A stretch of DNA of 32,335 bases from a virus (lineage: Duplodnaviria; Heunggongvirae; Uroviricota; Caudoviricetes). A program made the position numbers and the translations under genes. The stretch lies in IMG/VR virus record IMGVR_UViG_3300044642_000188. One strand, 5' to 3'. Positions 3,978 through 26,170 of this stretch are shown one piece after another; positions within the stretch are counted from its first letter, which is position 1, and each line of letters starts with the position of its first letter. The notes beneath the pieces are model-generated. The model was not told the DNA's origin, made no database searches, and saw nothing but the letters and a program-made list of their open reading frames with translations.

Positions 3978-4156
3978 TGGAAAAAAAAGAATTCATAAAA
4001 GATAAACATTACTACTTGGAGGGAAATAGAGTTGTATTCACATCTCTGTTTCTCATCCAACGTGGTGAGTGTTGTGCAAACGGGTGTAAACACTGCCCAT
4101 ATACCAAACCAAGAAAAAAAGGTAATACTCTTCTAGAAGAAGAGAAAAAAATATAG
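3977..4156 (+). CDS. 59-aa Cys-rich protein, DUF5522-like (missed by the ORF track)
   Basis: Hand translation: MEKKEFIKDKHYYLEGNRVVFTSLFLIQRGECCANGCKHCPYTKPRKKGNTLLEEEKKI. TAATG-coupled to nrdJ; CCxxGCxHCPY motif. Confidence 0.8.
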   Translation: MEKKEFIKDKHYYLEGNRVVFTSLFLIQRGECCANGCKHCPYTKPRKKGNTLLEEEKKI

Positions 4157-4183
4157 TGTTCTGTGTTCTGTTTTGATTATGAA

Positions 4184-4216
4184 AGCCCTGGTATATCTAT
4201 ACTGGGGCTATTTTTT
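4184..4216 (+). terminator. Rho-independent terminator
   Basis: Stem AGCCCTGGTAT / ATACTGGGGCT (two G-U pairs) followed by a T-rich tract. Confidence 0.65.
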
Positions 4217-4241
4217 ATTTTTTATTTTGTAAAATTATTCG

Positions 4242-4249
4242 TAAATTTG
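4242..4249 (+). promoter_or_regulatory. Possible -7 promoter box upstream of recA
   Basis: TAAATTTG matches TAnnTTTG 20 nt before the ATG; no correctly spaced -33 TTG was found. Confidence 0.4.
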
Positions 4250-4269
4250 TATCTATAAAACCAACAATT

Positions 4270-9349: not shown

Positions 9350-9351
9350 AT

Positions 9352-9382
9352 AAAAAAGCCCCTCAAAACAGAGGGGCTTTTT
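9352..9382. terminator. Bidirectional rho-independent terminator at the junction of the two arms
   Basis: AAAAAAGCCCCTC-aaaaca-GAGGGGCTTTTT, between stops at 9349 (+) and 9384 (-). Confidence 0.9.
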
Positions 9383-9383
9383 A

Positions 9384-9524
9384 TTATTTTGATAACTTCT
9401 TACCAGTCATAGGAGCCATAGGACTCTTACCTTTATTTCTAGTATTATCTGATTCCCTCATATAAGGCTTATTAGGCTTAGGGTTCTTAACCTTAGGAGC
9501 TAAACGTGGTTTACCTGATTTCAT
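9384..9524 (-). CDS. 46-aa basic protein (missed by the ORF track)
   Basis: MKSGKPRLAPKVKNPKPNKPYMRESDNTRNKGKSPMAPMTGKKLSK; TAATG overlap; stop abuts the terminator. Confidence 0.7.
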   Translation of the reverse strand: MKSGKPRLAPKVKNPKPNKPYMRESDNTRNKGKSPMAPMTGKKLSK

Positions 9525-10075
9525 TAGCAACCATATTTACATTTGCTCATAGACTTACCCATCTTAGCTTTACCAGTGTAGTTCTTACCAGGTTGTCTAC
9601 CATAACTACCAAGTTGCATAGATACAGTTTTACCAGACTTAGCAGCAGGGGCTTTTTTAGCAGCTCTAGCAGCTTTACGCTCTGATCTAGCTTCTTGACG
9701 TTCTTCTTTAGTTTTACCACCAGTTAAAACATTTTTGATAGCTTGACCAGCTTTTTGAAGAGGACTAGGTCCACCTTGGAAATATCTTTGTCTTTGAGCA
9801 CCAGTCATGTTTGATACACATCCGCCTCTTTGAGCTTTCTTAATAGTTTTACCAGCTTTAGCCTCAGGAGCAGATTTAGCAGCTTTTTTAGCAGCTCTTT
9901 TTTCAACTCTTTCTTCTTTGCGTTCTGCTCTTGCATTTTCACGCATTTGCTTGTTACCAGCTCTTCTTAATTGACCTTCGGTACCACCTCTGAAGAAATT
10001 AGTTCTTTCTTGAGAAGACATGTTTGAAACACAACCACCCCTTTGGGCTTTTTTAACCTTTTTAACAGTTGCCAT
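9524..10075 (-). CDS. Basic Lys/Arg/Ala-rich protein with an internal duplication
   Basis: Two KKAQRGGCVSNM modules, each followed by an RAAKKA-rich tract. Confidence 0.8.
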   Translation of the reverse strand: MATVKKVKKAQRGGCVSNMSSQERTNFFRGGTEGQLRRAGNKQMRENARAERKEERVEKRAAKKAAKSAPEAKAGKTIKKAQRGGCVSNMTGAQRQRYFQGGPSPLQKAGQAIKNVLTGGKTKEERQEARSERKAARAAKKAPAAKSGKTVSMQLGSYGRQPGKNYTGKAKMGKSMSKCKYGC

Positions 10076-10103
10076 TTTGTTTTGTTTTTATTTTTTTAAT
10101 AAT

Positions 10104-10853
10104 TTATTTTTTACTAACCTTGCCACCAGCTTTTTTCTTTGGTGTTGCACCTTTAGCATTTATGATTGATTTTACAATCTTTCTGCCATATTTTTTAGGT
10201 TTTGCAGGATAATCTTTATATACACCTGATTCTAATCCTTCTAAATACCTACCAGTACCTTTAAATGTTTTCTTACCAGCAGCATAGCCAGTGGTATCAA
10301 CAGCTAGTCTTCTTTTTGGATAACGAGCACCTTTAGTTTCATAAACTAATGAGTCGCCACTTTGTGCTGTCTTAATTTTAGCAGGTCTCTTGCCGCTTAT
10401 TTCTTTACTTGATTGTATAGCAGATTTTTTAGCTGCTTTATTCAATCTAGATTTAGCTTCATTATAACTCTCTTTAAACATGTTATGGTCTTTAAGAGCT
10501 TTACTAACTTTAGTTCTTAAAGTTTCTTTATCTCCACCAGGGTATGTAGTTTCTTTAGTTTCATATCCTTTACGAGTACTCATTTTTACAGAAGGATATT
10601 TTTTTACTAATGAGTCACCAGACTGAGCTTTTTTTGCTCTTGCAGCTTTTGCACGCTCTCTTAATGGTATAGACATTCGACTTGGTGGCTTAACTGAACT
10701 TGGTTTAACTGAACGTAAAGCTCTTTTTTGTACACGAGCAGCTACTCGCTCAGCCCTTTCAGGGTCTTTCTTTTCTATTCTGTGTATTCTGTCATCTTGT
10801 GATTTTCTTTTAACAAGATGATCACCAAGTTGTGCTTTTTTTACCTTTGCCAT
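10104..10853 (-). CDS. Basic modular protein, 249 aa (start re-called, MAKVKKAQLG)
   Basis: Three K[KT]AQxGD modules and a terminal KAGGKV; ATG 2 nt after the upstream stop. Confidence 0.8.
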   Translation of the reverse strand: MAKVKKAQLGDHLVKRKSQDDRIHRIEKKDPERAERVAARVQKRALRSVKPSSVKPPSRMSIPLRERAKAARAKKAQSGDSLVKKYPSVKMSTRKGYETKETTYPGGDKETLRTKVSKALKDHNMFKESYNEAKSRLNKAAKKSAIQSSKEISGKRPAKIKTAQSGDSLVYETKGARYPKRRLAVDTTGYAAGKKTFKGTGRYLEGLESGVYKDYPAKPKKYGRKIVKSIINAKGATPKKKAGGKVSKK

Positions 10854-10854
10854 T

Positions 10855-11295
10855 TTAACAGTTCCATTTACGAAGTGATTTATTAATTCTGCTGTTAGGG
10901 TCATTAGCCGTTTTAGCAGACGTGAGTTTCTTTTTCATACCTGACATTCTAGAACAGAAAGACTTACGTCTACTTGCTGCTTTAGAACCAGCTTTGAGTT
11001 TTGAAGGTTTAGTGGTAACAGCAGTCTTCAACTTGCTACCTGGATTAGCTTTTCTATAAGAAGCTACACCCTTAGCGTTTAAACCACCTTCAGGATTCTT
11101 ACCTTCTTTTCTTTGCCATGCTGGGCTAACCTTACCACCGTCCTTTAATGTAGAGCCTTTAAACTCTCCCTTCTTTTTAACAAGAGGACCATTAGGAACA
11201 GGGGTGATTTTACCACCAGTTCTAAGAACTCCCTTACCAACATAGGCTTCAGCCTTCTGTGGGTTATATACCTTTGTTTTAGGAATTCTAGCCAT
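10855..11295 (-). CDS. Basic protein with a DUF6321-like C-terminal domain
   Basis: AWQRKEGKNPEGGLNAKG...RRKSFCSRM...DPNSRINKSLRKWNC, a widespread phage family (recalled from memory). Confidence 0.7.
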   Translation of the reverse strand: MARIPKTKVYNPQKAEAYVGKGVLRTGGKITPVPNGPLVKKKGEFKGSTLKDGGKVSPAWQRKEGKNPEGGLNAKGVASYRKANPGSKLKTAVTTKPSKLKAGSKAASRRKSFCSRMSGMKKKLTSAKTANDPNSRINKSLRKWNC

Positions 11296-11296
11296 G

Positions 11297-11458
11297 TTAT
11301 TTACCTTTACGCTTTGCAGCTATCTTCTTAAACGTTTTAGCAAGAGCTTTAGCTCTACCTGTACAACCAGGCTTAGTAATAGGAGTGCATTTGCCTTCTG
11401 TACCTCTAGCCTTAATAGACTTAGATACCTTCTGCATCCACTTTTTATCTGTAGCCAT
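11297..11458 (-). CDS. 53-aa basic protein (missed by the ORF track)
   Basis: MATDKKWMQKVSKSIKARGTEGKCTPITKPGCTGRAKALAKTFKKIAAKRKGK; TAATG overlap upstream, 1-nt gap downstream. Confidence 0.8.
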   Translation of the reverse strand: MATDKKWMQKVSKSIKARGTEGKCTPITKPGCTGRAKALAKTFKKIAAKRKGK

Positions 11459-11952
11459 TACTTTTTCTTTTTCATTTTACCACCCATCTTCATCATCTTT
11501 GTAGCACCTAACTGTTTGTCCTTCTTAAGACTTACAGAAGTTTTAACGTTACGAGGAGGTAAGTTCATTTCTTGAACCTTAGTCCAAGCACCTTTAGGAT
11601 CAACAGGTCCTACACGCTTGTTAGAAGCAGTTAAACCAGCTTGAGCCTTCTTAACCTTACCACCATTCTTAATAACACCACGTCCTTTAAGGATGTCAGC
11701 TTTAGTAATCTTACCATCCTTGTTTAAGTCTGGGAATGATTTACCATCTTTAGCTTTAGGTAGCATGTTGGAAGCTCTAGAGCCACTGCTCTGAGCAACT
11801 CTTTTACCACGTTCTAAACGTGTAGCTCTTTCCTTCATGCGATCAGATACTTTATCAGCTCTGTCAGGATTTTTTTCTGCTATTCTACCAAGTCTTTTGT
11901 ATTGTCCTCTTCTAAGTTTAATACCAGATTGGGCTTTTTTAACTTTTGTCAT
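11458..11952 (-). CDS. Basic modular protein, 164 aa, with an EF-hand-like loop
   Basis: KKAQSG, KKAQAG, KNGGKV and KMGGKM motifs; DLNKDGKITKAD loop. Confidence 0.8.
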   Translation of the reverse strand: MTKVKKAQSGIKLRRGQYKRLGRIAEKNPDRADKVSDRMKERATRLERGKRVAQSSGSRASNMLPKAKDGKSFPDLNKDGKITKADILKGRGVIKNGGKVKKAQAGLTASNKRVGPVDPKGAWTKVQEMNLPPRNVKTSVSLKKDKQLGATKMMKMGGKMKKKK

Positions 11953-11957
11953 CTTAT

Positions 11958-12038
11958 TTATATATTAGATTGTTCTAGACATTTAGGACATTGTCCTTCC
12001 TCAAGAGCTATTTCATGTATGGAGCAATGATCGTTCAT
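11958..12038 (-). CDS. 26-aa Cys/His micropeptide (missed by the ORF track)
   Basis: MNDHCSIHEIALEEGQCPKCLEQSNI; TAATG-coupled; fills the gap exactly; CxxH-x8-CxxC. Confidence 0.6.
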   Translation of the reverse strand: MNDHCSIHEIALEEGQCPKCLEQSNI

Positions 12039-12187
12039 TACTTCTTACTCTTAGCCTTGATTTTCTTTTCCTGCTTAAGCATAGCAGATGTAGGTTTCTT
12101 ACCTGAGCCTTTAGCAGCACGAATGTTATCCCACAACCCACGTTGTGAAACAGAACCATCCTTGCGTTTAATCATTTCTTTTGCCAT
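12038..12187 (-). CDS. 49-aa basic protein (missed by the ORF track)
   Basis: MAKEMIKRKDGSVSQRGLWDNIRAAKGSGKKPTSAMLKQEKKIKAKSKK; GLWDNIRA resembles a common small phage protein family. Confidence 0.8.
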   Translation of the reverse strand: MAKEMIKRKDGSVSQRGLWDNIRAAKGSGKKPTSAMLKQEKKIKAKSKK

Positions 12188-12190
12188 AAC

Positions 12191-12484
12191 TTATTGATTT
12201 TCAGCTTCTTTAATAACACCAGCTTCCACTGATCTAGCTAGCACTTGCTCAACTGTATTGTTAGCTCTGTTAGCTAAAAGGATACGAGCAGCCTCTTCTG
12301 TAGCTAATTGTGCACGTAATGAGTTAAGGATTACACCAAACTCAGCACCGTTAATAACAAAAATATCATCTGTATTCCAGGTGTATTTCTTGTTTGGATC
12401 GTACTTAATAGGCTCCTGAGTAGGCATTTCTGGTACATTTACTTCTTCTTGACCTGGTAATTCTGGTACTAATTCTTCTGACAT
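12191..12484 (-). CDS. Acidic hypothetical protein, 97 aa
   Basis: Glu/Pro-rich N-terminus; first gene after the predicted promoter. Confidence 0.75.
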   Translation of the reverse strand: MSEELVPELPGQEEVNVPEMPTQEPIKYDPNKKYTWNTDDIFVINGAEFGVILNSLRAQLATEEAARILLANRANNTVEQVLARSVEAGVIKEAENQ

Positions 12485-12509: not shown

Positions 12510-12541
12510 CAAAGATATGTATTTCTACAATATCTACCAAA
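12510..12541 (-). promoter_or_regulatory. Bacteroidota-type promoter for the basic-protein operon
   Basis: Minus strand: TTTG (12541-12538), 20-nt spacer, TATCTTTG (12517-12510). Confidence 0.75.
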
Positions 12542-12542
12542 T

Positions 12543-13202
12543 TTATTTTAGCTCTGATTTATACACCTTTCTAGTGTTCCACAATTGACGATAGTTTCCT
12601 CCAGAGTGGTCTCCTAAATAAGCCATACTTCCATGTTGACCGTTTCTTTTTCCTCTGGCAATTAATGTATCATTGAGCACAAAGCAAAATGTATCATTGA
12701 GCACCATCAATGCTCCTTTGCAATATTTTGTGGAATAGTCAAACGCTTTTCCTAGCACACCTGGACCTGTACAATCTACAGGATATTTACCATAGTGTTT
12801 TGATTTACAATTACTTACTATTATATCAACAGCTTTCTTTAAATTCTTATTACCTGGAGGAGCATAGAACATACCTACTGCAACATATCTGTCTATTGTG
12901 TCTTTAAAGAACACACCATTTTCATCATTGTATTTATCTATATCAGGAAGAACAGAAAAACTAGTATCTATATACCAACCGCCATGTACATATATAATTG
13001 CAAACCTAGCTAAGTCTGCTTTAAAAGAATATGGAACTAGTTCATCGTAAGCCCAAAGTACCTCTGGTTCAAACTCTTTTTCTAAAAGCTCCTTTATACT
13101 ATTGTTGTCCCACAGCTTGTGTTCATATTTAGCTTTAACTGCTTCTATTTTTGCAACAGCTACTGGGGATGGACTATCAGTTATGTAGATTTGATGTATC
13201 AT
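12543..13202 (-). CDS. GT32 / Gly_transf_sug-type glycosyltransferase
   Basis: MIHQIY, KLWD, FKADLARFAIIYVHGGWYIDT, TGPGVL. Confidence 0.85.
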   Translation of the reverse strand: MIHQIYITDSPSPVAVAKIEAVKAKYEHKLWDNNSIKELLEKEFEPEVLWAYDELVPYSFKADLARFAIIYVHGGWYIDTSFSVLPDIDKYNDENGVFFKDTIDRYVAVGMFYAPPGNKNLKKAVDIIVSNCKSKHYGKYPVDCTGPGVLGKAFDYSTKYCKGALMVLNDTFCFVLNDTLIARGKRNGQHGSMAYLGDHSGGNYRQLWNTRKVYKSELK

Positions 13203-13885
13203 TTCATTATCACAGGTTCGTTATCTAAATATCCTGTATACACAGAATGATGTCCCCTTGATACACCATCGTAAGTCAATCCTACATAGTCATTACATTC
13301 AAACTCTAAATAACCTTCTTTACAATAATCTTTAGTTTCAAGAATAGCCCTGCTATAACATAAAGGACCCGTTACACTAAGAATATCTGTTTTTGCACTT
13401 ATTTTTCTTGGTCTATGAACATAGTTTTTTATGTTCTGTTTCATTCTAGAAATCACTGTATGTAAAATTGGATGCCCTGGTTCAGATATTATATGCCAGT
13501 TTTGGAATTCCCCAAACTTATATTTAAGTGTATCAGCATGATGTCTGTGACACCAATGTCCTGTAACAAACTTGTAGTTTTCTGCCCACTCAGTTAAGTC
13601 TTTCTCAGGACAACTTTTAATATCAAAATAGAATCCTCCAACCTTGTATATAAGCAAATACCTAAAGAAATCAGCCTTTGCCATACCAAGCTTTGGATTA
13701 ATCATGTTATACAGATGCAATGTCTCTTCATCATAATTTTCTTTAATGAATGTATAAACATCTTCATCATCGTATAATCTATATTCAAACGTAGGACATG
13801 CCTCTTTTAATCTAAATACCACTTCCTGTAATTCTAATGGAAGCTTTTTAGTTTTAAACGTTTGATGTATTATCTTAGGTATCAT
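13199..13885 (-). CDS. GT32 (Och1/Sur1-like) glycosyltransferase
   Basis: MIPKIIHQT, KADFFRYLLIYKVGGFYFDIKS, FQNW, TGP. Confidence 0.88.
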   Translation of the reverse strand: MIPKIIHQTFKTKKLPLELQEVVFRLKEACPTFEYRLYDDEDVYTFIKENYDEETLHLYNMINPKLGMAKADFFRYLLIYKVGGFYFDIKSCPEKDLTEWAENYKFVTGHWCHRHHADTLKYKFGEFQNWHIISEPGHPILHTVISRMKQNIKNYVHRPRKISAKTDILSVTGPLCYSRAILETKDYCKEGYLEFECNDYVGLTYDGVSRGHHSVYTGYLDNEPVIMK

Positions 13886-13893
13886 CAGTTGGT

Positions 13894-14586
13894 TTATATA
13901 AAATCTAAATTTATATCAGGGTTGTTGGAATTGTTAGGAGTATCTAAAGCAGTTGGAAAAGTTTCAGTACTAATACTAGCTTCTGGAACAAGTGCCTTTG
14001 GAACAAATGTGAGTTCTAACACAATTGGTATATCACGTCCTTCATAATTAAATGTGGAAGCATAATTGTTTCCATGAACATGACATAAATAAAAATACTT
14101 ATCAAGTTCAATTAAATAACTTATAAACTGGTCTCTATAAATCTCTTGATCTAAATCATGAAATTCAATAACCATTCCTGTAACTACATGAGACAGTTCT
14201 TCAATATTAGTATTTGCTAACCACTCATATTCACATCCTTCTACATCTATCTTTAACAGCACTCTTCCAGATATACCAAGTTCTTTATAATGATTTAGAA
14301 AGTTATCTGTTTGCTCCTGAGGAGTCCCAGACAATCCTTTTTTATACCATGTAAATAAGTCAGGATATTGAGTTTCAATACCTTCTATAGTATGGTCATA
14401 CCCACACACTTTCTTGTTAGTAAGCTGTATATAATGTTCATCAAATGTAATATCGTTATTTATTCCATAGCTAAACAAACACTCGCTATCTTCTAACATT
14501 TGTTTTGGAAGAATATACCCCCCATCATAAGTGTTTCCGAGTCTAATTTTTTCCCCTACATAATAGGGCTTTAATTGGTTTATCAT
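13894..14586 (-). CDS. FkbM/METTL24-like SAM-dependent methyltransferase
   Basis: RLGNTYDGGY, FSYGINNDITFD, LKIDVEGCE, VIEFH, HVHGNN. Confidence 0.8.
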   Translation of the reverse strand: MINQLKPYYVGEKIRLGNTYDGGYILPKQMLEDSECLFSYGINNDITFDEHYIQLTNKKVCGYDHTIEGIETQYPDLFTWYKKGLSGTPQEQTDNFLNHYKELGISGRVLLKIDVEGCEYEWLANTNIEELSHVVTGMVIEFHDLDQEIYRDQFISYLIELDKYFYLCHVHGNNYASTFNYEGRDIPIVLELTFVPKALVPEASISTETFPTALDTPNNSNNPDINLDFI

Positions 14587-14590
14587 TGGT

Positions 14591-14872
14591 TTATAATGTT
14601 ATATCAAAGACAATTGTTGCAGAACTCTTTATACTTTTAGACAGATCTAAATGGATCTGTAAGAGGTTATGAAACTTCAAAATCTCTTCTAGCAACATGT
14701 CATTATACCTGGGTACAGACGGTGCTAGTCTAAAGTGGTAGGAATTAGGATTCCTAGTAATTTCTAATGTGGCTAACTCATCCACAGAATCTATAATTCC
14801 CTGAAGGTGAGCAAAATAAGCAAGTTCGTTATCTTGCATCACCTCAGGAAAGAATTTCTTGTTAATTTGCAT
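14591..14872 (-). CDS. Hypothetical protein, 93 aa
   Basis: TAATG coupling; operon-like spacing. Confidence 0.7.
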   Translation of the reverse strand: MQINKKFFPEVMQDNELAYFAHLQGIIDSVDELATLEITRNPNSYHFRLAPSVPRYNDMLLEEILKFHNLLQIHLDLSKSIKSSATIVFDITL

Positions 14873-15276
14873 TAAGACAAGGTTAATAAGTATTTAGTTT
14901 TTGCTGCTTCACCGCTTAGAGCATCTGCTAGATTTGCTATATCGTGGAAGCTATTTGCTTCAGCATATCTTTTTAAGTTACTTGCAAAGTCCATAAGAGC
15001 TGTTACAACTGCATTAGAATCTGTAGCAGTTAAAGGGTCTATTTTAAATACACCAGGACGTTTACCTGTATAGCCCATAAGTTTCTCAATAACACCATCT
15101 TTGAAATCATGTACATAATCATATAATCCTCCAAGAGCTTGATGTTGAGCGTAACTCTTTGTCTGCCAATGTAATAGATGTAATTGCTCATGAAAATATG
15201 TAAGCTTTCCAGCTATTGTTTCTAAGTTTAATTCTCCTGATTTCATCATCTCATCAGGGAATAATGATTTTGCCAT
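14872..15276 (-). CDS. Ferritin/Dps-like four-helix protein (DUF5856-like)
   Basis: LHLLHWQTKSYAQHQALGGLYD...D.VIEKLMG pattern of phage Dps-like proteins. Confidence 0.75.
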   Translation of the reverse strand: MAKSLFPDEMMKSGELNLETIAGKLTYFHEQLHLLHWQTKSYAQHQALGGLYDYVHDFKDGVIEKLMGYTGKRPGVFKIDPLTATDSNAVVTALMDFASNLKRYAEANSFHDIANLADALSGEAAKTKYLLTLS

Positions 15277-15295
15277 TTAGTTTTATTTAATTAGA

Positions 15296-15709
15296 TTAAC
15301 ATGGTGTACCATTGTTTGTAATTGTAGATCCTGATAAAGTATATGCAGTTCCATTAAAACTTATATACTGGTTTCCTGTCCAAGGTTGCGTTAATGCTGC
15401 ATCATAGTATAAATTTACACCTACACCTAACGTAGATTGTGCAGTGTAAACAAGCCAACCAGGAACACCTGCACATGCAAATTCAGGAGTTACTGATGAG
15501 ATAATTGCCCATGCTGTAGGTGTTACACTTCCACCACCTTGTGTAGTGGTAGTGGTAGTGGTAGGTATTTCATTACAACATTCATTTGCATTGATTTCCA
15601 CCCAATTACCTACAGCAGGTTTAAACCTTTGTAGAATAGGACCACCAGCTATCACTCTACCTGTACCATCATAGCGTACGTACGCTTTTAATTTATTTTG
15701 ATTTGCCAT
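15296..15709 (-). CDS. Modular putative virion surface protein: anchor A, poly-Thr linker, variable domain
   Basis: LKAYVRYDGTGRVIAG...KPAVGNWVEI...ECCN, then PTTTTTTTQGGGS. Confidence 0.8.
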   Translation of the reverse strand: MANQNKLKAYVRYDGTGRVIAGGPILQRFKPAVGNWVEINANECCNEIPTTTTTTTQGGGSVTPTAWAIISSVTPEFACAGVPGWLVYTAQSTLGVGVNLYYDAALTQPWTGNQYISFNGTAYTLSGSTITNNGTPC

Positions 15710-15725
15710 TTTTTTTGTATCTTTA

Positions 15726-15750
15726 AGAGCACACCATAACGATGTGCTCT
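15726..15750 (-). other. Intergenic stem-loop (up to 11 bp in the minus-strand RNA)
   Basis: AGAGCACA / TGTGCTCT is a perfect 8-bp stem, extended by G-U pairs on the minus strand; no U tract in the sense direction. Confidence 0.55.
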
Positions 15751-15770
15751 ATTTTATTTAATTATATTAT

Positions 15771-16457
15771 TTATCCACAAGAAACACATTCACCAGGAGC
15801 TCCACCTGCACCTTGGATTATTGAATCACTAATTTTACTAAATAATCTTGAAAATCCACCATAGATTACATAAAATGTTGAAGGCAACATTGAGAAATTA
15901 CCTTGTAATTCAACAACTGGATCACATATGTTACTACCAGTAGCAAATGATACTGTTGTAAAAGTACTAGGTGTTCCACAAGATTCTGAATTGTATCCTA
16001 CATTTATAGTTGCTATAGTAGTGGTAGTTGTTGTTGTTATAAATGCACAATTATTTATGTATTGCATTACACCTTGTGAGTTTGTAAGATATAAATCTCC
16101 AAAACGTTGAATGTAAGAATTTGCATAAGGTATTGTCAATGCTTCATTAACGTATGCTACTTGGTTTTCTCCAGGAGCTGCAACAAACCAAAGAACAGTG
16201 CCTTGAAATCCTTCACATGCAATTTCAGCAGTTGGTCCTGTAAATAATTCAAAAGGAAAACCACCACCTCCACCACCTTGTGTGGTTGTTGTTGTAGTTG
16301 TAGAAGATGAAGGAATGTAATTACAACATTCGTATGCTTGAATTTCATGCCACTTACCCACCTTAGGTTTATTTTTCCTAAGGATTAAGCTACCAGCAAC
16401 GATTCTTCCGCTTCCATCGAAGCGAACAAAGGCTCTTAAGTCTCTCTTATTACTCAT
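15771..16457 (-). CDS. Modular putative virion surface protein: anchor A, two poly-Thr linkers, two variable domains
   Basis: LRAFVRFDGSGRIVAG...KPKVGKWHEI...ECCN; SSSTTTTTTTQGGGGG; ITTTTTTTI. Confidence 0.8.
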   Translation of the reverse strand: MSNKRDLRAFVRFDGSGRIVAGSLILRKNKPKVGKWHEIQAYECCNYIPSSSTTTTTTTQGGGGGGFPFELFTGPTAEIACEGFQGTVLWFVAAPGENQVAYVNEALTIPYANSYIQRFGDLYLTNSQGVMQYINNCAFITTTTTTTIATINVGYNSESCGTPSTFTTVSFATGSNICDPVVELQGNFSMLPSTFYVIYGGFSRLFSKISDSIIQGAGGAPGECVSCG

Positions 16458-16471
16458 AATAATCGTTTTTG

Positions 16472-17488
16472 TTAATATAATAATTTGTATTTTTCTCTTA
16501 ATTCCATCAGTTGTGATGTATAATAGTGTGTGCAGAACTTCTGACTAATCTCACTATTCATAACTGTCTGTAAATGAGGATCATTGAAAGGATCTTGTCC
16601 TGTGTGATACTTTCCTTTATAGAAAGCAGGATACCCATTGGCTTGATCACCAACAATTCCTGCATTATGTAGGAGTCCCATTCTCTTTATTTTCTCAATT
16701 GGATCAGAAGACCAAGCAAAATCCATTTCAGGAATAATCTTTGCTTCTTGTTTCCTATACCAAATAGCCCAAAGAACAGCCCACATATCAGCACACCAAC
16801 TTTGAAAGCCTTTATCTTCATTCTCAAAGAATTCTCTATTTACGTTTAGTAAATGTGTTCTAATTACCAAACAATCTTGCAACACCTTATCCCAGAAATC
16901 ACTATCGATGTTCTTTAATAGGTATTGAGCTCCTCCTGAATGTAAATTATTAGCTTCAGCTATCTCTCTAGTTATGCCTGTAAACTCTGCTGTTTCAGCT
17001 AGAATGTCTCTAGTCTTATACAACTCAAGCTTTTCAGGCTTTACATCTCTAATCTTACTATCAAAATATGAAGCGTTGATATAACTGTTTGTATCAGATA
17101 CATAGTTTATATCATCATCCAGATAAGCATCTATGTTTAGATTCTCTGTAAACACTACGTCTGAATCACAATACATAACAGCTTTATCTTTCATCCCTGG
17201 ATTCTCTTCAAAATATCTTCTCAGACAATAAGGACGCAACACAGGAATATAAACTCCTAACATGTTACTAATCTGGTGCTCATCTTTGTAGAATACAAAT
17301 TCAGCCTCTGGATAGAGGTCTATCACTTGCTGCCATTTGGTATTCTTCTCCCTATAACTAGGAATGAATATAAGCACAATTGCCTTGTCTGAATGTCCAA
17401 TTTTCCTTAAGCTCTCTATCCATAAATGTACCTGCCATGTGTAATAGGTATCATCTGGTTGAGCACAGATAAATCTGAGATCCTTCAT
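16472..17488 (-). CDS. GT-A glycosyltransferase resembling plant HPAT (GT95) / SERGT1 (GT96) peptide O-glycosyltransferases
   Basis: Colinear motifs DTYYTWQVHL, YIPVLRPYCL, VMYCDSDVVF, GGAQYLL, SWCADMW, LLHN parallel HPAT-type YxxWQ, YxxLNRP, MxEPDHVF, GNSPVI, GWVLEMY, IIHY (recalled from memory). Confidence 0.65.
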   Translation of the reverse strand: MKDLRFICAQPDDTYYTWQVHLWIESLRKIGHSDKAIVLIFIPSYREKNTKWQQVIDLYPEAEFVFYKDEHQISNMLGVYIPVLRPYCLRRYFEENPGMKDKAVMYCDSDVVFTENLNIDAYLDDDINYVSDTNSYINASYFDSKIRDVKPEKLELYKTRDILAETAEFTGITREIAEANNLHSGGAQYLLKNIDSDFWDKVLQDCLVIRTHLLNVNREFFENEDKGFQSWCADMWAVLWAIWYRKQEAKIIPEMDFAWSSDPIEKIKRMGLLHNAGIVGDQANGYPAFYKGKYHTGQDPFNDPHLQTVMNSEISQKFCTHYYTSQLMELREKYKLLY

Positions 17489-17524
17489 ATGTAGTTTTTA
17501 TTGGTTTGTTTTTTAATGTATTGA

Positions 17525-18655
17525 CTAGTTATTAGTAACAGTACACCCACGTCCTTGTAATACAGCTTTTGCAGCTAAACCAGTTGCAGAAGGTGTTGCT
17601 GATGTACCAGTTATTGTAACAGTTCTATTATTGAATGATGTAGTACCATTTGTTCCGTCTAATGCTGCTAAACTAACTAAAATTCCGTCTACACTACTTT
17701 GACTTAAAGAACAACTTGTAAAAATTACGTTTCCTGATGTTCCCCCTATTTGTTTCAAACCTGAACCAAAACCAAAAACAGTCAAATTTGGTGTTCCTGA
17801 TGAAAAATTAATTGTATTACCGCCAGAACTATATATTCTTACAATACTTGGCATAATAAAACTAAATAAAGCCGTACACGATTGAACGCTTAATGCAGTT
17901 GCGTTATTGTTATTATTTAATGTAGTTAAATTAACAAAAGCAATATTTGTTAATGATGTCAAACTTGATATACTAATTTGAGCAAAAGCGGTGGCTAATG
18001 AATTAAAATTAAATGTAGTTACTGCCGTTTGATTACTAATATTAATAGCTTGACCAACTGAAACTAAATTAGAAAAATTAATACTTGTTACAACGCTTGG
18101 ATTATTATTATTTAAAGTTAATGAACCAAGATAAGTAATATTTGGAAAATTTAAATTTAAAATATTTAAAGATGAATTTATTGAAAATCCACTGCCAACT
18201 CTTTGTAAACTTGGAAGTGATGCACCTAAATCTGTAATTAAAGGAGAACCTGGATTAAATTGGTTTTGAATTGCAACTAAATTAGGTAAACTTAATGTAG
18301 TTAAATTTGCAAAGTTTGTTTGAAAATTTTGTAAAATTTCAACATCACTTGTAAAAGAAGTAATAGAATTATAATTACTTGAATTAATTGTTAATGCACC
18401 CGTTTTTGTATATCCCGATAAAACAACTCCATTAATGTTTGAATTAATTAAATAGTTATCAAAATAATATCCCGGATTAATATTATTTGTTGTAACAAAA
18501 CTAAATGTAGGCATAACGGGACCGCCACCGCTTGCTAAATCAGCAATATCTTGTGCTGTTGTTTTTACTGTAGAACTACCTTGAACTACAGGAATTTCTT
18601 CTGCACCAGTTAATGCAGAACCTGCTGTCAGTTGACTAATTTTTACGTTTGCCAT
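17525..18655 (-). CDS. Putative fibre/adhesin: KISQL-type N-terminal segment plus LRR / receptor-L-like beta-solenoid
   Basis: MANVKISQL...LTGAEEIPVVQG; ~22-aa repeats LSLPNLVAI, SLPSLQRVG, NFPNITYLG, NFSNLVSVG, NFNSLATA. Confidence 0.7.
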   Translation of the reverse strand: MANVKISQLTAGSALTGAEEIPVVQGSSTVKTTAQDIADLASGGGPVMPTFSFVTTNNINPGYYFDNYLINSNINGVVLSGYTKTGALTINSSNYNSITSFTSDVEILQNFQTNFANLTTLSLPNLVAIQNQFNPGSPLITDLGASLPSLQRVGSGFSINSSLNILNLNFPNITYLGSLTLNNNNPSVVTSINFSNLVSVGQAINISNQTAVTTFNFNSLATAFAQISISSLTSLTNIAFVNLTTLNNNNNATALSVQSCTALFSFIMPSIVRIYSSGGNTINFSSGTPNLTVFGFGSGLKQIGGTSGNVIFTSCSLSQSSVDGILVSLAALDGTNGTTSFNNRTVTITGTSATPSATGLAAKAVLQGRGCTVTNN

Positions 18656-18665
18656 TTTTATATTT

Positions 18666-19532
18666 TTATTCTATAATTAAATTATCACCACCCTCTGTTA
18701 TGATGGGGTCACTACCCTCTGTTGTTATAAAATCACCAGGAGCACTGGTGGTTGTAGTTGTTGTTGTAGGACAAATATAAGGTGAACATGCAGGTAAATC
18801 ACTAAGATTATATATTGCAGAGATGATACCAGTTGTTAATGTAAACACTTTTGCATTTAAATAAGGACCGCCTAAATCATATATGTAAGTACCACTAAAT
18901 GTAACAGGAGGATTTCCAGGAGTTGTATTATATATTTGTGTTCCTACATTAAATCCTGCAGATGTATAGTATAAGAATGAACTTCCGCCATAGCTAGGAC
19001 TACCACTATTAAATACTTCAATCCAATCACATTTTACTTCAGCTGGTGTTTTTGTTGACCAATCTGTACCTACTCCACATATTACACCATTACTATATAA
19101 ATTTATTGGTTGAAAAGAATCTGTTGTGGTGGTGGTTGTTGTAGGTGTAGCAGTTGTTGTTGTACTAGTTGTAGAGGTTGTTGTACTTGTAGAAGTTGTA
19201 GTAGATGTACTTGTAGATGTGGTGGTGGTGGTGCTTGGGTTACAAGACTCACAAGGCTTTATGAAATAAACCTCTTTCCAATTACCATCCTGAGGAGCAT
19301 CATGTTGAAGAATCAAACTACCAGCTACATATTTGTTGCTGTTATTTTGACCACCTATTTTATTTATATATCTAACAAATGCACGTAGTTTATAGTTGGG
19401 AGGGGTAGTTGTAACAAGAACGTCACTAATAGCTACCCAGTCACCCACCTTAGGTTTAACTGAAGTTACTATTGGTCCACCTGGAACAATCCTTCCCTTA
19501 TTATCATATCTTATGTAAGCAGTTAAACTCAT
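18666..19532 (-). CDS. Modular putative virion surface protein: tandem anchor A x2, long Thr/Ser linker, domain, Thr linker, TEG tail
   Basis: AYIRYDNKGRIVPG...KPKVGDW and LRAFVRY...VAGSLIL...GNWKEV; 37-aa Thr-rich tract; C-terminal FITTEGSDPIITEGGDNLIIE. Confidence 0.8.
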   Translation of the reverse strand: MSLTAYIRYDNKGRIVPGGPIVTSVKPKVGDWVAISDVLVTTTPPNYKLRAFVRYINKIGGQNNSNKYVAGSLILQHDAPQDGNWKEVYFIKPCESCNPSTTTTTSTSTSTTTSTSTTTSTTSTTTTATPTTTTTTTDSFQPINLYSNGVICGVGTDWSTKTPAEVKCDWIEVFNSGSPSYGGSSFLYYTSAGFNVGTQIYNTTPGNPPVTFSGTYIYDLGGPYLNAKVFTLTTGIISAIYNLSDLPACSPYICPTTTTTTTSAPGDFITTEGSDPIITEGGDNLIIE

Positions 19533-19541
19533 ATCTTTTTA

Positions 19542-19703
19542 TTAAACAGTAGTCGTAGTAGTAGTGGTAGGAGGAACAGTTGTAGTAGTGGTAGTTGTAC
19601 CATTGTTATACATAACACGTGTCAGAGTCTCTAATTGCTTAGATATCTGCCATAGCAAATTGCTTTTTGTACCCCAGCCTATCTGTCTTGATGGTATTGC
19701 CAT
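19542..19703 (-). CDS. 53-aa protein: anchor B plus a near-pure Thr tail (missed by the ORF track)
   Basis: MAIPSRQIGWGTKSNLLWQISKQLETLTRVMYNNGTTTTTTTVPPTTTTTTTV; paralogous to the N-terminus of 19726-20667. Confidence 0.85.
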   Translation of the reverse strand: MAIPSRQIGWGTKSNLLWQISKQLETLTRVMYNNGTTTTTTTVPPTTTTTTTV

Positions 19704-19725
19704 TTTATTAATATTTTATTTTATC

Positions 19726-20667
19726 CTATCCTACTTGATTTACTGTTACAATTAATCCAGGAATAGCAGGGATATTTCCTGTAGCTACAGCTGATGTAAT
19801 TGCTATTGCATTATCTGCATTACTATTTATTTCCCATTTAAGTTGTACATATTCATTAGCACTTGTTGTCTTGAAAAAGAAATTCCAAGCTGGTACAACA
19901 TACACAGAGTTAGAAGGAAATCCTATTTGTGAAGCACTATTAGGTACACTTACACCATTTTGTGCTAACCAAATATGAATGTGTGTAGCAGTGTTACCAG
20001 TATTTTTTACCATCTGAGCACTAAACGCTATGCTATATACACCAGGATTAGCTATAGTTATTCTATTACCAGAAACAATTGAAACACCGTTGTTCCAAGA
20101 ATCTGAATTATTAAGACCCATTGTAAGAACACTATTAGCAACACCTGTTTGATTTGTAGTGTCATAGAAAGATCCTAGATAACCAAACCCACCAGCTGCA
20201 CCCTGAATTCCTTGAATACCCTGCACACCTTGTATACCTTGCTCTCCTTGAACACCTTGAACACCTTGGATGCCTTGATCACCTTGAGGTCCTTTTATAT
20301 CACCAGCATCAAACCATACAGTTCCATTCCAAGTCATCAATGATCCATCAGATAATAAAATCCATGCATCACCAATGTTAGCACCTGGTAAACTTCCTGC
20401 TCCTGCATTAAATGCAGCAAGATCAGCATAAGATCCAAGAAGAGTTACAGAATTACCTGCACTTCCTTGAGCTCCAGTTTCACCTTGCACACCTTGTATT
20501 CCTTGTATTCCTTGTGGACCCTGAGGACCAATAGGTCCTTGAGGACCTACAATACCACCACCTCCACTATTATATGTCACTCCTGTAAGAGCTTCTAATT
20601 GTTTAGAAATCTGCCACAAAAGATTTTCTTCTGTGCCCCAGCCTATCTGTCTACTTGGTATTGCCAT
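19726..20667 (-). CDS. Collagen-like fibre protein: anchor B, Gly-X-Y repeats, BclA-like C-terminal domain
   Basis: MAIPSRQIGWGTEENLLWQISKQL; two GPQ/GIQ/GVQ tracts; GSFYDTT...ITIANPGVYSIAFSAQ. Confidence 0.85.
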   Translation of the reverse strand: MAIPSRQIGWGTEENLLWQISKQLEALTGVTYNSGGGGIVGPQGPIGPQGPQGIQGIQGVQGETGAQGSAGNSVTLLGSYADLAAFNAGAGSLPGANIGDAWILLSDGSLMTWNGTVWFDAGDIKGPQGDQGIQGVQGVQGEQGIQGVQGIQGIQGAAGGFGYLGSFYDTTNQTGVANSVLTMGLNNSDSWNNGVSIVSGNRITIANPGVYSIAFSAQMVKNTGNTATHIHIWLAQNGVSVPNSASQIGFPSNSVYVVPAWNFFFKTTSANEYVQLKWEINSNADNAIAITSAVATGNIPAIPGLIVTVNQVG

Positions 20668-20686
20668 GATTGTGAAAATTAATATT

Positions 20687-20716
20687 CAAAGATATGTTGT
20701 TTTTTACTATAACCAA
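20687..20716 (-). promoter_or_regulatory. Bacteroidota-type promoter for the surface-protein / glycosylation operon
   Basis: Minus strand: TTG (20716-20714), 19-nt spacer, TATCTTTG (20694-20687); shares ACATATCTTTG with the 12510 promoter. Confidence 0.7.
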
Positions 20717-20946: not shown

Positions 20947-21378
20947 TTATTTTAATGATGCGATTGTAACAAATTGTAATACCACGACAGCTACTAGTAA
21001 AAACTTACCTAGCTCGTGCATCTTGGTTCTAAACTTCTCTTCCTTTTGAGCCTTGAAAAAGATTTCCCTATTAGCCTCATACTTCCATTTGTATTGGCTA
21101 ACATCAGCTATTACAGTTTTTAGACTATCCTGTCTAGATTTCAATGAATCCACCTTATAGGTTAATGAGTCTATGAAAACCTTATTTAATTGATTATCAA
21201 TGCTTAACGAATCTATTTGGGATTTATATCCTTTGATTAATGTATTGATATAGTTTCCTTGTTCAACGGTCATTATAACCACTGAATCATTACCTATTTT
21301 CTTTGTTCTTGGATACTGGGAGTACGTTGTAGCTGACACCAGTATCAACAAGATTACTATCAAGTTTACTTTTAGCAT
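20947..21378 (-). CDS. Exported coiled-coil protein with a signal peptide and C-terminal TM helix (lysis-associated)
   Basis: LIVILLILVSATTYS|Q; heptad-like middle; LLVAVVVLQFVTIA. Confidence 0.7.
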   Translation of the reverse strand: MLKVNLIVILLILVSATTYSQYPRTKKIGNDSVVIMTVEQGNYINTLIKGYKSQIDSLSIDNQLNKVFIDSLTYKVDSLKSRQDSLKTVIADVSQYKWKYEANREIFFKAQKEEKFRTKMHELGKFLLVAVVVLQFVTIASLK

Positions 21379-21631
21379 TGCTTAATTCAGATTTTAATGA
21401 GCTAACCTCTGCCTTTAATGATACAATTTGGCTAACTGCTTGGTTTACTATTTTTGTTTGTGCTTTGGCAGCACCTTCTTGTACAGCTGCACCATTTTTA
21501 TTATTTTCTGAAACTTTGTTAAGTAGGGACTCAAGTTCTTTATCTTCTTTAACTGTTTCATCAGCGTGCTGAGCTGTGGTATATTGACATCCATATAGAC
21601 TTATTAATATTAAAAATGTTAATGCTCTCAT
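21290..21631 (-). CDS. Lipoprotein, candidate o-spanin
   Basis: MRALTFLILISLYG|C lipobox; predicted coiled coil; lysis-cassette context. Confidence 0.6.
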   Translation of the reverse strand: MRALTFLILISLYGCQYTTAQHADETVKEDKELESLLNKVSENNKNGAAVQEGAAKAQTKIVNQAVSQIVSLKAEVSSLKSELSNAKSKLDSNLVDTGVSYNVLPVSKNKENR

Positions 21632-21933
21632 TAGTTTAACTTTTTTATAGCTCCTAATTGTTGTAATGTTTGTAACTGAGTGGTAGTCACAGCTTTAGTG
21701 CTGTCACTAACTCTTAGTGCTTCCTGCACCTTATCTAATCTACCTTCCACCTTATCAATACGTACATTCTGAGAAGTTGCCTGCTCTTTAAATGTTGTAC
21801 GCACATCTATGTATAGGTATGAAATAGCAATAAGTACTAGGAAGAGTGTACCCACTATTGGGTTCTTAGCAAACTCCTTAAAACTTATAGGTAAAGGATT
21901 TGCTGAAATGTTTGTTTCTTTTTTCGCTGCCAT
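21631..21933 (-). CDS. Single-TM coiled-coil protein, candidate i-spanin or holin accessory
   Basis: PIVGTLFLVLIAISYLYI TM helix, then a helical tail; TAATG-coupled to the lipoprotein. Confidence 0.6.
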   Translation of the reverse strand: MAAKKETNISANPLPISFKEFAKNPIVGTLFLVLIAISYLYIDVRTTFKEQATSQNVRIDKVEGRLDKVQEALRVSDSTKAVTTTQLQTLQQLGAIKKLN

Positions 21934-22181
21934 TATTTTCTTTTTAAATCTTGTATAAATTCATCTCTTTGAGCCATTAGATATTTTTCTCTGTCTAATA
22001 GTCTTTGTCTTTCATCTTCAGTTAACTTCAGGATTAGTTCTTCTTTTGACTTAATCATCTGTTTATACTCGTTCATCTGAGATGTAAATAAACTATTCTG
22101 ATAATACATAATACCAACTAGGATCAATATTGTAAAGGACTGCTCCTTTAGTTTATTCATAAACTCTTGACCATAGTTCAT
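21933..22181 (-). CDS. Single-TM coiled-coil protein
   Basis: SFTILILVGIMYY TM helix followed by a charged helix. Confidence 0.7.
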   Translation of the reverse strand: MNYGQEFMNKLKEQSFTILILVGIMYYQNSLFTSQMNEYKQMIKSKEELILKLTEDERQRLLDREKYLMAQRDEFIQDLKRK

Positions 22182-22187
22182 TATATT

Positions 22188-22787
22188 TTATTTTAATAGG
22201 TTATTATATTCATTAAAATGCTTGATACGATCAGGAAGTCCAATTGTACCACCATTTACACGCTTAGTAACCTTAGTAACTACAGCATCTGTAGCTCCTT
22301 CATCAGCAATCTTATGTAAACCATTCTTATGGAAGAACCAAGCTGCAGATAATAAAGGATACTTTGTAGCTACTAAATCAGGGGTAGCAAGGATATCATC
22401 CTCTACAGATTTATCAAAAGCTGTGTAGTTATCCTTTCCAGTTAGCTGAATGTATCCACGTCCTCTGAACTTCCAACCCTCACCAGATGCTTCTAAACCA
22501 TTACCCATACGACCACCATACACCTTGTTAGCAATCTTTTCTGGCTGACGAGCATATGCATTAGCTAATGCTTCTGTAGGAAAGTATTTCTTAAAAGTAT
22601 TCATAAGACCTTTAGCCCCATAGTTTAGGTTCTCTGAAACAGCTTTGAATCCACCTGATTCATGACCACACTGAGCCAAGAAATGAGCTAGTCTTAAAGG
22701 AGTATTGATTTCAAACTTAGTTTGTACATCAGGAATCTGAGCAATCACTGTGTCAGGAATGTGTCCTTTTAATTTTTCTAAATTCAT
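22188..22787 (-). CDS. GH19 (chitinase-like) endolysin
   Basis: RLAHFLAQCGHESGGF, ENLNYG, YGGRMGN, FRGRGYIQLTGKDNY, VTKRVNGGTIG. Confidence 0.93.
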   Translation of the reverse strand: MNLEKLKGHIPDTVIAQIPDVQTKFEINTPLRLAHFLAQCGHESGGFKAVSENLNYGAKGLMNTFKKYFPTEALANAYARQPEKIANKVYGGRMGNGLEASGEGWKFRGRGYIQLTGKDNYTAFDKSVEDDILATPDLVATKYPLLSAAWFFHKNGLHKIADEGATDAVVTKVTKRVNGGTIGLPDRIKHFNEYNNLLK

Positions 22788-25711: not shown

Positions 25712-26170
25712 TTAACAACCTACTACATTAACAATAAAGCCACCATTGTCCACCTGATAACTAGCTGAACCAGGTCCTTGAGAAAACCATTGAAAACCTC
25801 CTACCACAGGGGTTATATTACAATCATAAGCTACCCATAATCTCGTAGGAGAAATAGCACTGTCAGTATCATATAACGTGTAACTTCCAAAGTGGTCACA
25901 TGGACTAGAATTATAAGGATATAGATATATTTGTTGACATGCTGGTGCTGCAGCTTGTAGATCTGATTTTACAACCAATTGATTGGAAGCTTTAGCAGCA
26001 TAAGGTCCATAAGATGTATTAATGTTTACATAATAGTCAGCATCAGCTTTGGTTATCTGTTCTGAACTTGCAGGTATGCTATTCTTTAATGTAAATACCC
26101 CTGTGTTTACAGCATTCTGTAAATTGTTAAATGATACACATTGATTATTTGCAAGTGATGCCCAACTCAT
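25712..26170 (-). CDS. Tail-associated structural protein, 152 aa
   Basis: TAATG-coupled to the tail fibre; conserved-looking N-terminal half and a Cys/Tyr/Gly-rich C-terminal domain. Confidence 0.7.
   Translation of the reverse strand: MSWASLANNQCVSFNNLQNAVNTGVFTLKNSIPASSEQITKADADYYVNINTSYGPYAAKASNQLVVKSDLQAAAPACQQIYLYPYNSSPCDHFGSYTLYDTDSAISPTRLWVAYDCNITPVVGGFQWFSQGPGSASYQVDNGGFIVNVVGC

Follow-up and report, generated by a model that had tools for sequence, protein, structure and literature searches.

Gene content of the threonine-tract unit

We analyzed a 32,335-nucleotide (nt) stretch of DNA from a virus of the class Caudoviricetes (IMG/VR record IMGVR_UViG_3300044642_000188; the whole stretch is called the window below) and concentrated on a unit of genes in which proteins with long threonine (Thr) tracts are encoded beside a putative glycosyltransferase (GT) of 338 amino acids (aa). 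The unit consists of 12 minus-strand open reading frames (ORFs) that tile the DNA from 20667 down to 12543 with intergenic gaps of -4 to 61 nt, and they comprise six fibre or decoration types, four enzymes, a DUF5856 protein and a 93-aa ORF (Table 1). An initial annotation had described 12 packed genes between two promoters, six surface-type proteins of which four carry poly-Thr, and two GT32 enzymes with an FkbM methyltransferase. All of these were recovered, the promoters as promoter-like boxes: the surface-type proteins are a collagen-like fibre, a solenoid resembling leucine-rich repeats (LRR) and the 53-, 288-, 228- and 137-aa Thr proteins, and the two GT32 proteins and the methyltransferase scored above their Pfam cut-offs. 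A hydrophobic or membrane segment was absent from all 12 unit proteins, while the lysis genes just upstream do encode them. For comparison we used 80 relatives whose GT was 65-100% identical (the relatives, or clade set) and 80 additional viral loci, retrieved through a distant alignment, on contigs of 4-363 kb (the distant set).

Table 1. Features of the unit and its surroundings. Positions refer to the window unless a locus is named; E, expect value; Tn, a run of n Thr residues.
Feature	Position	Strand	Remarks
Bacteroidota-type promoter-like site	20687..20716	-	TTGG, ~20 nt, TATCTTTG; precedes first gene; sequence read
313-aa collagen-like fibre protein	19726..20667	-	anchor B (~33 aa), two Gly-X-Y blocks, C-terminal domain
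53-aa peptide, proposed glycan-carrier subunit	19542..19703	-	anchor B + T7-VPP-T7-V, then stop
288-aa protein	18666..19532	-	2x anchor A, 38-residue Thr/Ser tract, ~120-aa domain, second T7 tract
376-aa LRR/receptor-L-domain-like solenoid	17525..18655	-	fibre-type N-terminus, no Thr tract
338-aa soluble GT-A glycosyltransferase, proposed Thr-tract O-glycosyltransferase	16472..17488	-	phrog_4417 E 2e-54
228-aa protein	15771..16457	-	anchor A, S3T7, Gly run, domain, T7, domain
137-aa protein	15296..15709	-	anchor A, T7, ~80-aa Cys-bracketed C-terminal domain
DUF5856 protein, 134 aa	14872..15276	-	phrog_858; Pfam PF19174 E 1.6e-13
93-aa conserved ORF, last gene of conserved core	14591..14872	-	in 71/80 relatives
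230-aa FkbM-family methyltransferase, first cassette gene	13894..14586	-	PF05050 30.4 bits vs 22.7, residues 36-149
228-aa GT32-type (Och1-like) glycosyltransferase, GT32a	13199..13885	-	PF04488 43.2 bits vs 23
219-aa GT32-type glycosyltransferase, GT32b, last unit gene	12543..13202	-	PF04488 35.1 bits vs 23
Next promoter-like site	12510..12541	-	TTTG, 20 nt, TATCTTTG; precedes basic-protein operon
1625-aa virion structural protein (nearest complete relative)	L084:4527-9404 = G001:C1:50526-55403		phrog_37948 E 5e-98
Lysis cassette	20947-22787	-	directly upstream of unit
GH19-type endolysin	22188-22787	-	phrog_181 E 2e-69, Pfam Glyco_hydro_19
Small protein, holin/spanin candidate	21631-21933	-	strongly hydrophobic segment
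Small protein, holin/spanin candidate	21290-21631	-	lipoprotein-like start
Small protein, holin/spanin candidate	20947-21378	-	strongly hydrophobic segment
Next unit	9524-12484	-	small, very basic proteins
DUF6321-containing gene	10855-11295	-	C-terminal domain, E 5e-20
Strand switch	near 9350-9520
Ribonucleotide reductase and recombinase genes	2121-5304	+	reductase divergent, class II-like, weak Pfam hits; recombinase RecA/UvsX-type, PF00154 E 5e-86
>2037-aa protein	26170-32334	-	runs off window end

Within the window, all eight runs of at least five Thr residues in any reading frame fell at 15542-19598 and inside four genes, those of the 53-, 288-, 228- and 137-aa proteins. Seven of the eight were exactly T7, and the Thr codons were mixed. 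The 288-, 228- and 137-aa proteins have in common an N-terminal module of ~45 aa, anchor A, present in four copies, and the end domains that follow their Thr blocks are mutually unrelated; these variable C-terminal domains had very few homologues among the 80 relatives, too few for a useful fold. In contigs of related phages, joints fell at or next to Thr-tract and anchor sequences (17490->19579, 15712->19194 and 19238->16311), and they skip or swap whole genes or domains between two tracts. Given these positions, anchor modules and Thr blocks may have a second function as sites where recombination shuffles end domains.

Anchor B, the first ~33 residues of the 53-aa peptide, is also found in the 313-aa collagen-like protein, which has no Thr tract and matched Pfam Collagen (E 4e-10) as well as tail and tail-fibre families of PHROG (lowest E 2.8e-24); its C-terminal domain is weakly BclA_C-like (E 0.014, below cut-off). 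Collagen-like fibre genes were also seen within 5 kb of the enzyme gene in 15 of the 80 distant loci. For the 376-aa protein there was no Pfam or PHROG match, and its structure neighbours were Recep_L_domain, LRR_5 and BspA clusters at template-modelling (TM) scores of 0.66-0.72. The 376- and 288-aa genes are both accessory, the first being missing from most relatives and the second from the corresponding position in most of them, and the usual arrangement is a 53-aa-type gene that abuts the enzyme gene with neither of these two between. The DUF5856 gene, whose phrog_858 family carries the label 'starvation-inducible transcriptional regulator', followed the Thr proteins in 77/80 relatives, and the 93-aa ORF matched no family in Pfam, PHROG or NCBIfam.

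The exact 9-mer ATATCTTTG, which includes the Bacteroidota -7 box TAnnTTTG, was present on the minus strand at 20687-20695 and 12510-12518 only. Both copies lie ~20-30 nt ahead of an ATG and ~20 nt downstream of a TTGG or TTTG. When the relatives were searched for the full motif (TT[TG]G, 17-21 nt, TAnnTTTG), it stood ahead of p97, with which the next unit opens, in 32 of 66 loci, and ahead of the GT, Thr-protein, DUF5856 or 93-aa ORF genes in none of ~75 each. Since the motif stands at both ends, is kept before the next unit and is absent inside the core, a single transcription unit of 12 genes is plausible. A sigma-70 scan gave fewer sites than shuffles, the sigma-70 model being uninformative for a Bacteroidota-type phage, and several weak terminator-like hairpins lie inside the unit. 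No RNA library was listed as a match to the whole unit. The enzyme gene alone took up small shares in metatranscriptome libraries, and at 80% likeness these libraries contained short contigs from relatives that cover the GT, DUF5856 and Thr-tract regions, for which DNA carry-over is possible.

Association of the 338-aa enzyme with Thr tracts

The proposal that the Thr proteins are substrates of the enzyme was made from co-location, and the initial annotation had suggested that the co-occurrence of the GT with poly-Thr anchor proteins be checked in related phages. We found that Thr-run proteins adjoined the enzyme gene in 77 of 80 relatives. The order kept was anchor-B Thr peptide, GT, anchor-A Thr protein, DUF5856 and 93-aa ORF, with the anchor-A Thr protein directly after the GT in nearly all relatives. 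The association was also seen in the distant loci, where the density of runs of at least six Thr residues was 74.8 per 100 kb at distances up to 3 kb from the GT gene versus 4.9 beyond (~15-fold); 63 of 80 loci had such a run within 3 kb and nearly all runs were on the GT strand. Of the other coded homopolymers (S, A, G, P, Q, N, E, K, D or L), none was enriched near the GT in these loci, and an enrichment of Val runs arose because Thr-coding repeats were read on the opposite strand.

The same pairing of GT and Thr tract was found in five isolates with Bacteroidota and Bacillota hosts, namely PLE3, phiFL1A, phiCTP1, Semele and MA9V-3. In Lactobacillus phage PLE3, the major capsid protein and the major tail protein both end in T7S, and the gene immediately before that of the GT encodes a 34%-Thr protein. 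Enterococcus phage phiFL1A carries Thr tails on its capsid-position protein and major tail protein, followed by the GT gene, and Clostridium phiCTP1, Lactobacillus Semele and Chryseobacterium MA9V-3 resemble these two in their Thr-tract/GT pairing. The GT gene lies between the capsid and tape-measure genes in PLE3, phiFL1A and phiCTP1. The tail-tube core of phiFL1A is 52-60% identical to its homologues in Streptococcus Javan47 and 315.6 and Lactobacillus phiJL-1, which have the usual chaperone genes after the tube gene and no GT gene there. Their tube proteins end after the shared '...PGETTGDY..NI', while that of phiFL1A adds a Thr/Ser tail of 27 residues. Taken together, the clade, the distant loci, the isolates and this pattern of gain and loss strongly support an enzyme-substrate link, predicted by comparing sequences, that is more than co-location.

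Many of the Thr carriers end directly after the Thr block. This includes 46 distinct anchor-B peptides of 44-84 aa, which end in T7-9 and then x-x-P and are encoded just upstream of the GT in most of the 80 relatives. Since many Thr blocks have nothing attached after them, the arrangement suggests that the block is a tag and not a mere linker. Run length in the clade peaked at seven (163 of 330 runs, versus 15 at six and 42 at eight), and the runs were set within a P-T7-[VA][AT]-P unit; among runs of at least five in the distant set, six was the commonest length. The fixed run length suggests a ruler, either enzymatic or structural. Microsatellite slippage was set aside as an origin of the runs, given the mixed codons and the length fixed at seven.

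The tag was not confined to the unit. In the nearest complete relative, (ACN)7 was found 24 times on one strand and zero times on the other, at three places: the GT unit, a 1625-aa virion structural protein, and 191- and 451-aa proteins encoded beside a tail-fibre gene. The 1625-aa protein is the largest Thr-tagged protein of that genome and is encoded far from the enzyme gene; its C-terminus consists of ~170 residues of T6-T9 blocks with short Cys-rich motifs before and after them (such as C..C..C..GTA.. repeats). The enzyme would therefore serve substrates encoded 45-55 kb away. The unit had originally been called self-contained, and that part of the description does not hold, as T7-tagged virion proteins are encoded at this distance and the donor sugars must be host-derived.

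We also examined the 338-aa enzyme itself. It belonged to no Pfam or NCBIfam family, and phmmer against the PDB sequences gave nothing meaningful. The enzyme family is large: the 90%-identity collection gave 2,897 hits, and there were 764 clusters at the 50% level. Its carriers in the distant set include contigs of jumbo-phage size (190-363 kb) and one contig with the label of a giant-virus metagenome-assembled genome. A structure model built on 40 sequences had a predicted local distance difference test (pLDDT) score of 96.3 and a GT-A fold, and 95 PDB representatives matched it at Z>=8, with GT-A enzymes in all the top rows. The best solved matches were retaining GT8-type enzymes, namely glycogenin (Z 14.4), Skp1 alpha-galactosyltransferase (Z 13.9), LgtC (Z 13.9), UGGT (Z 13.6), GlyE of the serine-rich-repeat pathway (Z 12.7) and the PBCV-1 capsid glycosyltransferase (Z 11.0). 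Several of these act on proteins or protein-linked glycans. Foldseek gave a probability of 1.00 for UGGT, glycogenin and WbbM, and a TM score of at most 0.47 to glycogenin, which is among the best solved structures.

Higher TM scores were obtained with models of clusters from the hydroxyproline O-arabinosyltransferase (HPAT) family. A Chlorophyta cluster in which 100% of the members are HPAT aligned at TM 0.71 (301 residues aligned; root-mean-square deviation 4.2), a bacterial cluster with 55% HPAT members aligned at TM 0.70, and the HPAT-family alignments spanned 282-301 residues; HPAT clusters were also among the language-model neighbours of the enzyme. In sequence, the enzyme had no match to Pfam HPAT (PF23452) at E<=0.1, and the family was weakly matched by one of 40 and one of 20 relatives (E 1.3e-4). 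The modelled HPAT fold is thus the nearest named one, while membership in the family is unsupported, and of the HPAT-like GT proposed initially, the GT-A fold and the likeness to HPAT models are retained and the Pfam assignment is not. The initial annotation also named SERGT; this peptidyl-serine alpha-galactosyltransferase family (SERGT1/SGT1, CAZy GT96) was absent among the language-model and structure neighbours listed, no comparison aimed at GT96 having been made. Residues D108-S-D110 and H274 did not vary among 40 sequences, the most divergent of which had 30% identity, or among 20 distant members. Such residues are a requirement of a metal-dependent GT8-type site, and D108-x-D110 with H274 presumably forms the metal and nucleotide-sugar site here. 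The maximum 19-residue Kyte-Doolittle mean was 0.76, and because there is no hydrophobic segment the enzyme lacks an N-terminal membrane anchor. A predicted complex of the enzyme with the 53-aa peptide, both supplied as alignments, scored 0.02, which is neutral on binding.

Proposed O-glycosylation of the Thr tracts and its alternatives

We consider it probable, at roughly 60%, that the phage encodes a cytoplasmic system that O-glycosylates Thr blocks on its own fibre and decoration proteins. Late in infection, the Thr-tagged fibre and decoration proteins would be made in the cytoplasm, where the HPAT-like enzyme would transfer the first sugar from a host nucleotide-sugar, such as a uridine diphosphate (UDP)-sugar, onto Thr hydroxyls before assembly. 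The enzyme's substrates would include T7-tagged virion proteins whose genes lie outside the unit. Extension of the glycan would in this strain fall to the two GT32 enzymes, and its methylation to FkbM. Short N-terminal modules would then fix the modified proteins to the assembling particle, which would bear mucin-like stalks that are stiff, hydrophilic and resistant to proteases. On a wider scale, we regard as evenly balanced the proposition that a Pro-flanked run of about T7 is a portable glyco-tag, read by an HPAT-like soluble GT-A enzyme in phages of at least two bacterial phyla, by which tagged capsid, tail-tube, fibre or 45-60-aa anchor-peptide proteins become mucin-like, and that GT32/methyltransferase cassettes diversify the glycan between strains.

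Several points weigh against this proposal. Each step from the enzyme and the Thr tracts to a glycosylated virion is one that we infer, and the location of the anchor modules on the virion is assumed from their fibre-type partner. By sequence the 338-aa enzyme falls outside the Pfam HPAT family. The comparative loci are phylogenetically non-independent and several are near-duplicates; three of the 80 relatives keep the GT without a run of at least five Thr residues (Thr/Ser-rich stretches are still there), and 17 of the 80 distant loci have no Thr run within 3 kb. Both GT32 proteins lack the second Asp of the DXD motif, and the GT32 and FkbM genes are missing from most relatives and lie at the 3' end of the operon, a usual site of unrelated morons. 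The conserved DUF5856 protein and 93-aa ORF are left unexplained by the glycosylation model.

The last three genes of the unit allow an alternative that is compatible with the core of this proposal. The FkbM-GT32-GT32 cassette could be an unrelated moron, for example one whose enzymes act during infection on a polysaccharide or lipid of the host envelope. The cassette was found in ~7 of 80 relatives (FkbM in two, the GT32 genes in ~7), most relatives go from the 93-aa ORF straight to the next operon, and one metagenome contig joins 12550 to 14601, exactly across the three genes. Homologues of GT32a are widespread in bacteria, under the source name 'mannosyltransferase OCH1-like', and have no known protein link. 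GT32b matched phrog_28262 (E 5e-17), and against NCBIfam TIGR01444 the FkbM protein scored below cut-off (25.4 versus 37.7). At the DXD position GT32a reads GGFYFD-I-K(-S) and GT32b GGWYID-T-S, with the first Asp invariant. Since D-I-K is kept across the whole GT32a subfamily, bacterial members included, it is a subfamily trait and not decay. The D-T-S form of GT32b was seen besides only in the nearest relative of that protein, D-F-S occurred in multi-domain relatives, and the small GT32 genes beside the GT in distant phages had D-I-D or D-V-D.

Four observations argue against a separate moron. Domains of the 338-aa GT type are naturally fused to GT2 plus GT32 and to methyltransferase domains, and small GT32 genes directly follow the GT in three of the 80 distant loci, each in a distant lineage. 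In some relatives, a single protein of >650 aa with three tandem GT32-like domains, all D-F-S, replaces FkbM and the two GT32 proteins (L004:12888-14843 and L014:8553-10859, which match the 765-position profile phrog_28262), and the cassette or this triple-GT32 protein always occupies one fixed slot of the unit. Finally, the three cassette proteins have no membrane segments, while envelope-modifying enzymes are often membrane-bound. We hold a separate cassette to be possible but less likely than not. The pathway of initiation, elongation and methyl-capping put forward in the initial annotation thus gains from the link between the GT and GT32 or methyltransferase genes; because the cassette is accessory, elongation and methyl-capping remain roles that we infer. 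As the cassette appears to be a swappable accessory, related phages would carry different glycans.

A further alternative would be that the Thr blocks are unmodified linkers, flexible or rigid, and that the GTs act on phage DNA bases or on host surface glycans in superinfection exclusion or release. Thr/Pro-rich linkers are indeed common between the domains of secreted Bacteroidota proteins. Among phage GTs, those for DNA glucosylation and serotype conversion are the best known (PMC12619734). Against these precedents, Thr runs alone among homopolymers cluster within 3 kb of the GT across unrelated phages, the terminal Thr tails of capsid and tail-tube proteins have nothing after them and are gone in the enzyme-less homologues, and the 53-aa peptide ends in two T7 blocks. 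The GT gene of the Bacillota siphophages, moreover, is in the head-tail assembly module and not among DNA-metabolism genes. We judged unmodified linkers to be unlikely on these grounds, and a role of the enzyme in DNA modification was set aside for its position in the head-tail module and the Thr-specific association. It is more doubtful still that the Thr blocks are modified on carriers that are not virion parts, such as released or intracellular glycopeptides acting on the host or on competing phages: the virion location of anchors A and B is assumed, the 53-aa peptide has no folded domain and the unit comes after the lysis cassette rather than after the main structural block, but anchor B is common to a collagen-like protein that matches tail-fibre families, T7 is otherwise carried, in the nearest relative, by a virion structural protein and by proteins encoded next to a tail-fibre gene, and the tagged proteins of the isolates are annotated major capsid and major tail proteins.

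If the proposed glycosylation of Thr blocks is correct, phages would possess a widespread second self-glycosylation system that is distinct from the one in mycobacteriophages, and a prokaryotic-virus counterpart of the initiation step of plant extensins and animal mucins. Sugar coats would then be common in phages of lakes, gut and dairy, beyond the mycobacteriophages, and would bear on the stability, aggregation and adhesion of phages in water and mucus and on the recognition by antibodies and clearance of therapeutic phages. Standard searches miss modified peptides, and phage proteomics would need to be re-read. A GT family characterised in plants and algae would be extended to phages with a new acceptor, and a tag of ~10 residues with one soluble enzyme would make a two-part glyco-engineering tool for cytoplasmic O-glycosylation in bacteria. 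The variable GT32/methyltransferase cassette and the hypervariable end domains would together give a rapidly changing surface chemistry between near-identical phages.

Genomic setting and relation to known systems

The window belongs to a phage genome of ~114 kb. Its 338-aa gene recurs at 100% identity in a near-identical IMG/VR record that has 114,224 bases and a completeness rating of 99%, and DNA of the phage was present in metagenomes of lake water (24 runs). When the 9-kb unit was compared by megablast with 50,697 phage records, there were zero matches. Among isolates, Chryseobacterium phage MA9V-3 was the nearest by both the enzyme (32% identity) and the RecA-like protein (43.5%), which fits a Bacteroidota host. 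The basic-protein unit that follows the Thr-tract unit includes a gene for a DUF6321 C-terminal domain that recurs at the C-termini of several function-unassigned PHROG families. Beyond the strand switch lie the plus-strand genes for the ribonucleotide reductase and recombinase. At the other end of the window, the incomplete >2037-aa protein has no Thr runs of at least five residues and had a family match for its last ~120 residues only (long tail fibre distal subunit, E 5e-7).

Plant and algal HPATs transfer L-arabinofuranose to peptidyl hydroxyproline, as the first sugar on a hydroxyl group of an extended peptide with repeats, and plant HPATs are Golgi type II membrane proteins. The phage enzyme is like this family (CAZy GT95) in its nearest named fold and as a language-model neighbour. 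It is unlike it in having neither the Pfam match nor a membrane anchor, and its presumed acceptor is Thr, not hydroxyproline. The likeness to glycogenin, AgtA (Skp1) and GlyE lies in the best solved folds, with 217-234 residues aligned and the DxD and downstream His in common, although sequence identity to the phage enzyme is 10-13% and the Foldseek TM score 0.4-0.47. The serine-rich-repeat system has a long Ser/Thr-rich substrate and dedicated cytoplasmic GTs encoded beside it; its initiation is by the GT-B pair GtfA/GtfB, GlyE only elongates, and its substrates, unlike those proposed here, are exported bacterial adhesins and not virion parts. Chlorovirus PBCV-1 also uses its own cytoplasmic GTs for a structural protein, and the structural match noted above is to its A64R. 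The PBCV-1 glycans contain methylated sugars, according to the initial annotation, and are N-linked at atypical sites of the major capsid protein. PBCV-1 differs as a eukaryotic giant virus that is not known to have a poly-Thr tag or an HPAT-like enzyme. The cassette proteins, for their part, differ from the Och1-like GT32 and FkbM families in being small (219-230 aa) and soluble, with D-I-K or D-T-S at the DXD position.

In the literature searched, phage virion glycosylation was reported for mycobacteriophages only, and nothing was found that links an HPAT-like enzyme, poly-Thr blocks or Thr-rich O-glycosylation to phages. The initial annotation knew of no mucin-like system of Thr tracts with an HPAT-like enzyme in a Bacteroidota phage, and this literature likewise contained no published description of one. 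What the genes predict is that the phage glycosylates itself by what is probably another enzyme family, directed at a defined poly-Thr tag. Phage-encoded GTs of mycobacteriophages Che8, Corndog and Myrna modify the phages' own structural proteins (Freeman et al. 2023, as cited in PMC12619734, PMC10877033, PMC13313380 and PMC12691614), and the glycans are placed on the C-terminal parts of capsid and tail-tube subunits (PMC12619734). In this citing literature, the pair of a GT and a methyltransferase has been taken as a hint of virion glycosylation in actinobacteriophages. The mycobacteriophage system differs from ours in its Actinobacteria hosts, whereas the carriers here would include dedicated small fibre-type proteins, as predicted from the genes. 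The two are alike in that a phage GT gene is placed among structural genes, which in the present unit are of the fibre type.

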